Below, one piece after another: positions 10,640 through 53,138 of a stretch of DNA of 64,000 nucleotides. How positions within the stretch are numbered: the stretch's first letter is position 1; every line of letters starts with the position of its first letter. The position numbers were made by a program, and so were the translations under genes. The stretch lies in contig OX597820.1 of assembly GCA_951406725.2 (NCBI GenBank), positions 39,928,001 to 39,992,000 on the forward strand, written 5' to 3'. Under the pieces are notes generated by a model. That model saw only the letters and a program-made list of their open reading frames with translations, did no database searches and was not told the origin of the DNA. Source of the DNA: Octopus vulgaris. Its lineage: Eukaryota.

Positions 10640-11060
10640 ATTATTTCTTTACTGCCCACAAGGGGCTACACACAGAGCGGGCAAACCAGGACACACAAAC
10701 GGATTAAGTCGATTATATCGACCCCAGTGCATAACGGGTACTTATTCAATCGACCCCGAAAGGATGAAAGGCAAAGTCGACCTCGGCGGAATTTGAACTC
10801 AGAACGTAGCGGCAGACGAAATACCTATTGTTTTTACTACGCACAAGGGGCTAAACACAGAGGGGACAAACAAGAACATACAAATGGATTAAGTCGTCTA
10901 TATCGACCCCAGTGCGTAACTGGTACTTATTTAATCGACCCCGAAAGAACGAAAGGCAAAGTCGACCTCGGCGGAATTTGAACTCAGAACGTAGCGGCAG
11001 ACGAAATACCGCTAAGCATTTCGCCCAGCAGTGCTAGTGTTTCTACCATCTCACCGCCTT
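10640..11060 (-). mobile_element. SINE family B, tandem dimer
   Basis: tRNA-like head with B box GAGTTCAAATTCC. Body repeated twice. Confidence 0.88.
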
Positions 11061-22695: not shown

Positions 22696-22758
<63 letters not shown>

Positions 22759-22782
22759 CACATACATTTATATATGTATATA

Positions 22783-22878
<96 letters not shown>

Positions 22879-23113
22879 TACATTCATAGATGCATATATA
22901 TATATGCACATATATCTATACATACATTATATATATATATATATATATATATATAACATAAGGGACGTTAGCCATCTGAATGTGGCTAGGGACAGGGCAG
23001 GGCGGTGGGGGTATTACTGATGCATTTAGCCCCAGGCGATCATCAACGTCGCCAGGAGGGCTGACGCCATCACGGCGTCCTCTAGCCTGCAAAGGGAGAT
23101 CATTCCCCGAAGA

Positions 23114-23181
23114 AGCGGATGCCACATACGGACCTAGGTTTCAAGGTGCTTGCCTATTATCAACGTATGGCAGGCACCGCT
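23114..23181 (-). ncRNA. Type I hammerhead ribozyme, U3-A8 core (copy 1)
   Basis: CATACG-TTGATAA-T-AGG(CAAGCA)CCT-T-GAAA-CCTAGG-TC-CGTATG. Predicted cleavage between 23131 and 23130. Confidence 0.8.
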
Positions 23182-23469
23182 ACTCGACGAACGACTCTCT
23201 GTGCAGGCTATATATAAAGATTTTCACAGTAAATACATTTACTGATGTAGAAAATCTGTTCGACAGCAATAATAATTCTCTAAACGAGATATAGACAGTA
23301 ACTGCTCCATAACATAAGGGACGTTAGCCATCTGAATGTGGCTAGGGACAGGGCAGGGCGGTGGGGGTGTTACTGATGCATTTAGCCCCAGGCGATCATC
23401 GACGTCACTAGGAGGGCTGATGCCATCACGGCGTCCTCTAGCCTGCAAAGGGAGATCATTCCCCGAAGA

Positions 23470-23537
23470 AGCGGATGCCACATACGGACCTAGGTTTCAA
23501 GGTGTTTGCCTATTATCAACGTATGGCAGGCACCGCT
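23470..23537 (-). ncRNA. Type I hammerhead ribozyme, U3-A8 core (copy 2)
   Basis: Same as copy 1 with loop 2 CAAACA. Predicted cleavage between 23487 and 23486. Confidence 0.8.
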
Positions 23538-23577
23538 ACTCGACGAACGACTCTCTGTGCAGGCTATATATAAAGAT

Positions 23578-23717
23578 TGTTTGCAAATATATAAGAGTTT
23601 TTATAGTGACTTCTGACACTGATTTCGAAAAACCTCTGAGATTTAATAATGCTTGCAGTCAGTTTTTCGAAATCAGTGTCAGAAGTCACTAGAAAAACTC
23701 TTAAATATTTGCAAACA
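23578..23717. repeat. Near-perfect 56-bp inverted repeat with 28-nt loop
   Basis: 23578-23633 pairs with 23662-23717 with 2 mismatches. Confidence 0.95.
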
Positions 23718-23741
23718 GGCCTTGTCTTTCATCGTGATCCG

Positions 23742-23801
23742 GTGATTACCGCCCGTTGATAAGAGACAATAATCTCGAAACCGCGGTCCGGTGCGTATCA
23801 C
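23742..23801 (+). ncRNA. Type I hammerhead ribozyme, U3-A8 core (opposite strand, distinct sequence)
   Basis: GTGAT-TAC-CGCCCG-TTGATAA-GAGA(CAATAA)TCTC-GAAA-CCGCGG-TC-CGGTGCG-T-ATCAC. Predicted cleavage after 23788. Confidence 0.85.
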
Positions 23802-23899
23802 TTAGGCTTACAAGAAAGGGATGGCCTCCCTTTGCAAATACCTTAAGTGCACAGGAATTGTGTTTAAAGTCAGCTGTAGACGATGATCTCCTGGGGCTA

Positions 23900-23965
23900 A
23901 AAAGCTACAGTAACACCCCCCCCCTTTGTGGTTAGCCATATTGAGATGGCTATTATACTTTACAT
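23900..23965 (+). mobile_element. Internal fragment of the Helitron at 45303-45702
   Basis: Reverse complement of ~45367-45432. Confidence 0.7.
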
Positions 23966-53087: not shown

Positions 53088-53138
53088 AGCTTCCTGATGA
53101 TTTCTTTTGAATGAAACAGTTCTAGTCCTGTAGAAGCT
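53088..53138 (+). ncRNA. Type I hammerhead ribozyme with canonical core
   Basis: AGCTTC-CTGATGA-T-TTC(TTTT)GAA-T-GAAA-CAG(TTCTAGTC)CTG-TA-GAAGCT. Predicted cleavage after 53132. Confidence 0.75.

Follow-up and report, generated by a model that had tools for sequence, protein, structure and literature searches.

The locus studied here occupies positions 22708 to 23965 of a 64,000-nt stretch of Octopus vulgaris DNA (hereafter the window) and is made of two arms of a repeat family, belonging to subfamilies A and B, both outer ends of the locus being the homologous 3′ end of the repeat unit, facing outward. Hammerheads of opposite polarity thus lie within 270 nt of each other. Throughout the family, arms finish at two fixed 3′ positions about 44 nt apart, referred to below as the tail and no-tail ends. 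The features of the locus are:

22708–22955: (TA)n microsatellite of about 250 nt bordering the A arm on its 3′ side, the likely insertion target
22953–23578, minus strand: subfamily A arm holding 1.76 copies of a 356-nt unit in tandem, 5′-truncated, 3′ end at the no-tail position
23131–23163, minus strand: A hammerhead core 1, with U3-A8, U·U at 10.1/11.1 and stem III CCUAGG; cleavage predicted after 23131
23487–23519, minus strand: A hammerhead core 2, predicted cut after 23487
23578: A/B junction, with a 1-nt overlap, about 22 nt off the homologous register
23578–23633, minus strand: short inverted B segment (unit positions 56–109), copying 23662–23717 with 2 differences in 56 nt
23635–23965, plus strand: subfamily B arm, a single 5′-truncated unit (positions 29–352 of about 352–356) with a no-tail 3′ end
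23706–23840, plus strand: rod-like fold around the hammerhead (z −5.0 and −5.8)
23742–23801, plus strand: B type I hammerhead, from motif reading, folding and a sub-threshold Rfam match
23742–23746/23797–23801, plus strand: outer helix
23747–23749 versus 23796, plus strand: internal loop, UAC against U
23750–23755 with 23789–23795, plus strand: stem I
23756–23762, plus strand: core UUGAUAA
23763–23776, plus strand: stem II GAGA/UCUC (4 bp) with loop CAAUAA
23777–23780, plus strand: GAAA
23781–23786, plus strand: palindromic stem III CCGCGG
23787–23788, plus strand: UC of GUC, predicted cut after 23788

Both arms are intact, at 99% (A) and 92–93% (B) identity to their subfamily references, and the right flank of the B arm, 3′ of 23965, is AT-rich. 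The B fold-back at 23578–23717 forms an inverted repeat of 56 bp, almost perfect, around a 28-nt loop, a possible hairpin if transcribed; sub-threshold matches to miRNA families at 23575–23720 simply reflect this inverted repeat, and a miRNA identity was rejected. Elsewhere in the window, a descriptor scan picked up a C3-G8 hammerhead-like motif at 53094 on the plus strand (6-bp stem I, weak stem II), which may be due to chance, and a weaker candidate at 606. A 185-nt two-copy tandem repeat at 10648–11010, which we take to be SINE-like, has the short word GGGGCTAAA in common with the retrozyme unit.

A U3-A8 hammerhead on the plus strand had been proposed by the first-pass annotation, and the motif withstood closer analysis: judged from its sequence, it is a genuine hammerhead motif inside an ordinary kind of element, of type I, with predicted cleavage 3′ of 23788 and with the core elements of that type (a Watson–Crick 3-8 pair, here U3-A8, the GAAA and the cut site GUC). 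The placement given there likewise holds for the UAC/U internal loop, for CTCCCTTTGCA further downstream (23826–23836) and for the enclosing stem (23706–23715/23831–23840). Stem I, announced as 6 bp, does hold six pairs in the plus copy but is interrupted (3 bp, a bulged U at 23792, 3 bp), while the minus-strand copies, said to be of the same design, are homologous in architecture, but their stem II begins with U·U, against G-C in the plus copy. Folding of the 23706–23840 region yields z = −5.8, a value equalled by 0 of 200 shuffles, and the Rfam model Hammerhead_HH9 matches 23738–23811 with 34.9 bits (E 8e-7). This is short of its gathering score of 52, nothing in the 64-kb window attains the gathering score of any Rfam model, and no Rfam hammerhead match is listed for the minus-strand hammerheads at E values up to 10. 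The pattern of conserved loop 2 and stem I bulge residues looks retained in the octopus family, whose CAANNA loop and URC bulge match the residues that Martick and Scott reportedly described in 2006 for the Sm-alpha hammerhead.

In the plus-strand monomer, the catalytic hammerhead fold lies 5.6 kcal/mol above the predicted minimum, which is hence a non-catalytic fold, and the 8-mer palindrome of stem III has a predicted self-duplex energy of −14.1 kcal/mol. Such misfolding of the monomer, together with self-pairing of stem III, fits the dimer-dependent design of metazoan type I hammerheads set out in the accessible part of PMC4209133. A lone plus-strand copy is predicted to cleave poorly unless dimerised, and a lone B copy, having one ribozyme and no cis partner, would be a dead end; since the monomer is predicted to misfold, its inactivity in a low-Mg2+ assay would not count against the ribozyme. 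In the A arm, cores 1 and 2 could, on prediction, pair as a cis double hammerhead and free a 356-nt monomer.

The genome searched for related copies comprises 2.8 Gb in 227 contigs. A first look produced 1302 candidates for A and 2765 for B, and among the best 40 scored for each the nearest copy was 99% (A) and 95% (B) identical. Exact U3-A8 motifs number 132 of A type and 99 of B type genome-wide, and a generic hammerhead pattern has 1123 exact matches, as against a single one for the reversed control. The repeat units measure 352–356 nt, inside the 170–400-nt range of non-LTR retrozymes, occur as monomers and tandems, and bear one type I hammerhead each. A and B can be aligned across the whole unit at about 65% identity, which bears out the homology supposed between the plus- and minus-strand variants and explains their shared ribozyme design by common descent.

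On this sequence evidence, the repeat of about 355 nt is very probably a dispersed non-coding non-LTR retrozyme. Metazoan retrozymes of this class, as portrayed in the available parts of PMC7229834 and bioRxiv 10.64898/2026.07.22.740005, also have a non-coding unit of about 350–390 nt with one type I hammerhead, and resemble the octopus family in their dispersed monomers and short tandems, their rod-like fold and the presence of Penelope-like elements (PLEs) in the same genome. In mussels, repeats of 350–390 bp with type I hammerheads yield circular RNAs (PMC7229834), and Li et al. 2026 derive animal retrozymes from the pLTRs of PLEs (bioRxiv 10.64898/2026.07.22.740005). Circular RNA is thus documented for metazoan retrozymes, whereas the octopus family is known from its sequence and its ribozyme is predicted. 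The octopus core further differs from theirs in being U3-A8 or U3·G8 in most copies, and mussel motifs, so far as the accessible text describes them, lack most of the loop 2 and stem I bulge residues that the octopus family seems to keep. Among predicted Xenopus retrozyme dimers, 1 of 9 cleaved in vitro according to the same preprint, which counts against the retrozyme account. Li et al. call a retrozyme active when at least two consecutive units bear ribozymes; in the window, the A arm has two motifs and the B arm one, and tandem B loci are present elsewhere in the genome (e.g., L005). We rejected an identity of the two arms as autonomous PLEs: each is shorter than 650 nt and consists of the repeat unit, with no RT + GIY-YIG ORF between pLTRs. 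One contig in public runs (presumed to be RNA) wraps from 23965 to 23635, a wrap that a tandem copy explains equally well; among the public runs listed as containing the repeat, none is recorded as RNA. A literature search, covering mostly papers outside subscription, found no report of an octopus or cephalopod retrozyme.

To place the two polarities in context, the 99 B-type and 132 A-type exact motifs were grouped into 184 loci. These counts rest on exact motif positions, arm-end mapping and motif-pair comparison, and not on the automated subfamily painting of loci, which is noisy for B and its relatives (some references contain inverted pieces) and clean for the A and C rows only. Motifs lie on one strand at 152 loci and on both strands at 26 A/A loci, 5 B/B loci and one A/B locus, that of the window. 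The 31 same-subfamily two-strand loci are all head-to-head (0 tail-to-tail), and the other opposite-strand pairs that were fetched (less than 800 nt apart) are single-subfamily in 25 cases out of 25, three of them scoring low only through downstream rearrangement. Recurrence of the plus/minus arrangement, a point raised in the first-pass annotation, is therefore observed in the sense that opposite-strand pairs are frequent, but the A/B mixture is found at only 1 of 184 loci. The next-closest A/B distance in the genome is 60.6 kb, and no other instance of the A/B junction at 23578 was seen among the best 40 of 843 candidates.

Two origins had been suggested for this arrangement. Head-to-head insertion of sister elements agrees with what we see, the homologous A and B arms standing back-to-back. 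The other, a single ambisense unit, is refuted, because among the 184 loci the two variants co-occur at the window locus only, and each unit has its ribozyme on one strand. Viroid-like and ambisense circular RNAs carry ribozymes in both polarities, and their monomer size and rod-like fold are similar to those of the octopus unit; a single viroid-like unit that bears a ribozyme on each strand and replicates by a symmetric rolling circle would accommodate both hammerhead polarities within 270 nt. Such a unit is nonetheless highly improbable here: the A/B junction is unique among the candidates scored, the descriptor scan and the Rfam search found no second ribozyme on the antisense strand of the A or B unit, and the two halves, homologous along one and the same repeat unit, have diverged from each other and are each dispersed alone. 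Unlike these RNAs, the octopus unit is of single polarity, the opposite motif being a second genomic copy. The both-polarity arrangement is insertion geometry of the PLE kind, and the mixture of subfamilies is a one-off chimera.

This geometry can be read from the ends of the arms. In a survey of 29 A loci (5 of them taken from the motif listing), the 44-nt tail is on exactly one arm in 23 of the 23 head-to-head loci. B pairs, present in 10 of 29 loci, have a one-arm tail in 9 cases out of 11, the remaining two being a partial tail and a tailless short internal inversion (L018). At the window locus, the tail is absent from both arms. The flanks of the arms are mostly TA runs or AT-rich, and most other A arms also finish in TA runs. 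Four of the 23 head-to-head A loci (L046, L051, L053, L054) show yet another recurrent 3′ end, the third, at unit position 334–336.

An inverted 5′-truncated copy, a tail of 30–40 bp at one end and TA targets make up the Penelope signature, as outlined in the accessible parts of PMC8557442 and PMC3846280. Paired fixed 3′ ends, a one-sided tail and head-to-head arms are presented as common and unique to PLEs (PMC11167929, PMC8557442), the tail being explained by two RT start sites that bound it (PMC11167929). According to the same source, PLEs nick both strands of AT-rich DNA, their own pLTR included, and a PLE protein cuts and extends both strands in vitro. The octopus family carries this footprint, namely head-to-head inverted 5′-truncated copies, a one-sided tail and AT or TA targets, in likeness to PLE pLTRs (PMC8557442, PMC3846280, PMC11167929), with a tail of about 44 nt versus 30–40. 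Schistosoma PLE hammerheads also occur as opposite-strand pairs, 100–700 bp apart (PMC4209133, in part). The octopus unit differs from PLE elements by apparently having no ORF and by carrying a full-length rather than minimal hammerhead, and from PLE pLTRs by showing no homology to that of the resident PLE family compared. A Penelope-like reverse transcriptase/endonuclease is the likely copying enzyme of the retrozyme, and back-to-back arms likely arise because Penelope-type elements paste their copies head-to-head.

Intact PLE frames of 781 aa are present in the genome; they match RT and GIY-YIG domains and have direct or inverted pLTRs on their flanks; in the GIY-YIG survey, the best 150 of 6136 candidates were scored. 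Neither A nor B has a BLAST match in 28 PLE loci, and their scores against the 3′ region of one PLE family fall inside the shuffle range. Since no sequence link ties A or B to the resident PLEs, it is the footprint that points to the carrier, for which the young 781-aa family is a candidate. Movement by non-PLE machinery (e.g., an RTE-type LINE), or spread as DNA, would agree with the missing pLTR homology in these comparisons, as well as with one subfamily C copy that shares a 1.38-kb tandem repeat with part of an RT from a different type of LINE; yet it is very unlikely in view of the fixed paired 3′ ends, one-sided tail and head-to-head arms, which are PLE-specific according to the available parts of PMC11167929 and PMC8557442.

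Two of these loci deserve a description of their own. The young autonomous PLE family (L129–L135, L144; e.g., G000:C16:20834800-20841500) has pLTRs and, upstream of its 781-aa RT + GIY-YIG frame, a further ORF, and several of its copies end in TA runs. Its pLTR bears a U3-A8 hammerhead-like motif of its own (U3-A8 in all 51 exact matches), and no similarity was detected between this pLTR and the retrozyme unit. The tandem locus (L062, G000:C1:94320500-94328500) consists of four 1.38-kb repeats, each containing a U3·G8 retrozyme copy and an RT-frame fragment of another LINE type.

For the chimera itself, we favour an account in which A inserted directly beside the 5′ end of a B copy already in place, and which, taken as a whole and with this order of events, is on balance probable. 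Briefly, multimeric retrozyme RNA would use the palindromic stem III to fold as a double hammerhead, would be cleaved after GUC and may circularise. The PLE protein would nick both strands of AT-rich DNA and prime at the tail and no-tail start sites, which would give back-to-back arms. The earlier insertion would have been that of B, which folded back over a short distance at its 5′ end; priming of A in the adjoining TA run would have followed, with end-joining at 23578. The lack of a tail on either arm fits two insertion events, and the A-onto-B order is favoured by the tailless outer ends, by the resemblance of the B part to the stand-alone L018 and by the older appearance of subfamily B (nearest copies at 95%, versus 99% for A; median singleton divergence of 1.1%, versus 0.3–0.4% for A).

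Several of these observations can also be turned towards a single event, in which A and B RNAs were primed on opposite strands of one break, either by a pair of PLE complexes or by a single complex that changed template, the B cDNA then folding back and joining the A cDNA. The zero-gap head-to-head join at the window is identical in geometry to that of single-event, same-subfamily loci, which counts against the two-event order, and a PLE protein does cut and extend both strands in vitro (PMC11167929, in part). Moreover, private substitutions in the window copies (6/626 for A, 7/387 for B, P = 0.26) do not separate the ages of the two arms, and chance placement of A and B within 2 kb of each other, with about 90 loci of each, is estimated to be expected some 0.01 times. 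Against one event stand the absence of the tail from the outer ends (compared with 23/23 A loci and 9–10 of 11 B pairs), the single-subfamily make-up of 31 of the 32 two-strand loci and the older subfamily status of B, so that we see it as a serious possibility that falls short of probable. That two nearby insertions were brought together only afterwards, by deletion or recombination (or by an assembly join), is improbable: the adjoining 250-nt TA run is prone to rearrangement and, among the matches listed from four public runs, none of the contig pieces bridges 23578, but the 1-nt overlap is clean, the arms are intact, and the offset of about 22 nt from the homologous register is unlike homologous recombination.

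Besides its geometry, the family stands out by its 3-8 pair. The 1123 motifs comprise 503 U3-A8 (by subtraction), 511 U3·G8 and 109 C3, with 7 C3·A8 among 100 listed of these 109. Of 33 B-type alignment rows, 32 have U3-A8, single rows being truncated before it or altered at it; most rows of A type have it too. The view that U3-A8 is a family trait rather than a mutation thus holds within subfamilies, where it is inherited and not private, but not family-wide, given the similar number of U3·G8 motifs and the existence of C3-G8 subfamilies. Genome-wide, amplified U3·G8 subfamilies (e.g., L112, L113, L116) often have G·U at 10.1-11.1, and a few copies are C3. U3-A8 is known as a natural variant active in vitro (PMC3088659, in part) and from about 1300 Schistosoma PLE-type motifs (PMC4209133, in part), whereas the literature search, again mostly outside subscription papers, turned up no description of U3·G8 in a natural hammerhead.

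To follow the pair through the family, 144 motifs were thinned to 108, and 12 chimeric, truncated or long-branch rows were removed, leaving 96 units for a tree computed with 7 core columns masked. The C3-G8 subfamilies are diverse and lie outside, B belongs to a grade of U3-A8 units, and A falls inside a clade of U3·G8 units, with several strongly supported branches leading to it; grouping all U3-A8 units in one clade is rejected (p-AU 2.3e-9, core columns masked). With the C3-G8 subfamilies as outgroup, the simplest order that these sequences suggest is C-G, then U-A, then U·G, then U-A again in A, a reading for which the root is assumed, the A branch is long (0.36) and template switching could distort the topology. 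The CpG at positions 7-8 of the wobble subfamily offers a plausible mutational route back to A8.

Covariation was examined in the 116 of 144 motifs with fixed geometry, a pattern-selected sample of related sequences, the counts of which are not independent. Stem II pairs 2–4 are standard in 115, 111 and 109 of the 116 motifs, with several pair types, and stem I pairs 1–3 in 105, 96 and 105, while the stem I bulge URC is UAC in 59 and UGC in 30. The octopus hammerheads share with the type I hammerhead of Schistosoma Sm-alpha a 6-bp helix I, a 4-bp helix II and a short palindromic helix III (PMC4209133, in part), but differ from it by U3-A8 in place of C3-G8, by the bulged U in stem I of B and by pair 10.1-11.1, which is standard in just 72 of the 116 motifs. 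This last count indicates that the family tolerates core-adjacent deviations, a tolerance that fits the report that hammerhead mutants leave PLE insertion unimpaired in vitro, the PLE hammerhead being protein-assisted (PMC11167929, in part). Tentatively, the 3-8 pair may have walked from C-G to U-A, to U·G and back to U-A while the family was amplifying, with U3·G8 either active here (dimer- or protein-assisted) or cleavage dispensable for PLE-driven spread; the window itself may also record one PLE event with two RNA templates.

U3-A8 hammerheads, opposite-strand hammerhead pairs and mollusc retrozymes are already published, and the remaining interest lies in the 3-8 pair series of this family, chiefly its amplified subfamily with the U3·G8 wobble. 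About nine tenths of the motifs in the genome (1014 of 1123 are U3) are overlooked by standard C3-G8 descriptors and by the cut-offs of Rfam. The two mapped 3′ ends predict RT start sites, which makes the use of non-autonomous retrozymes as templates of PLE proteins testable. Finally, C3-G8, U3-A8 and U3·G8 cores and varied 10.1-11.1 pairs on one scaffold form a natural allelic series, with which the need for hammerhead cleavage in retrozyme and PLE mobility becomes testable.
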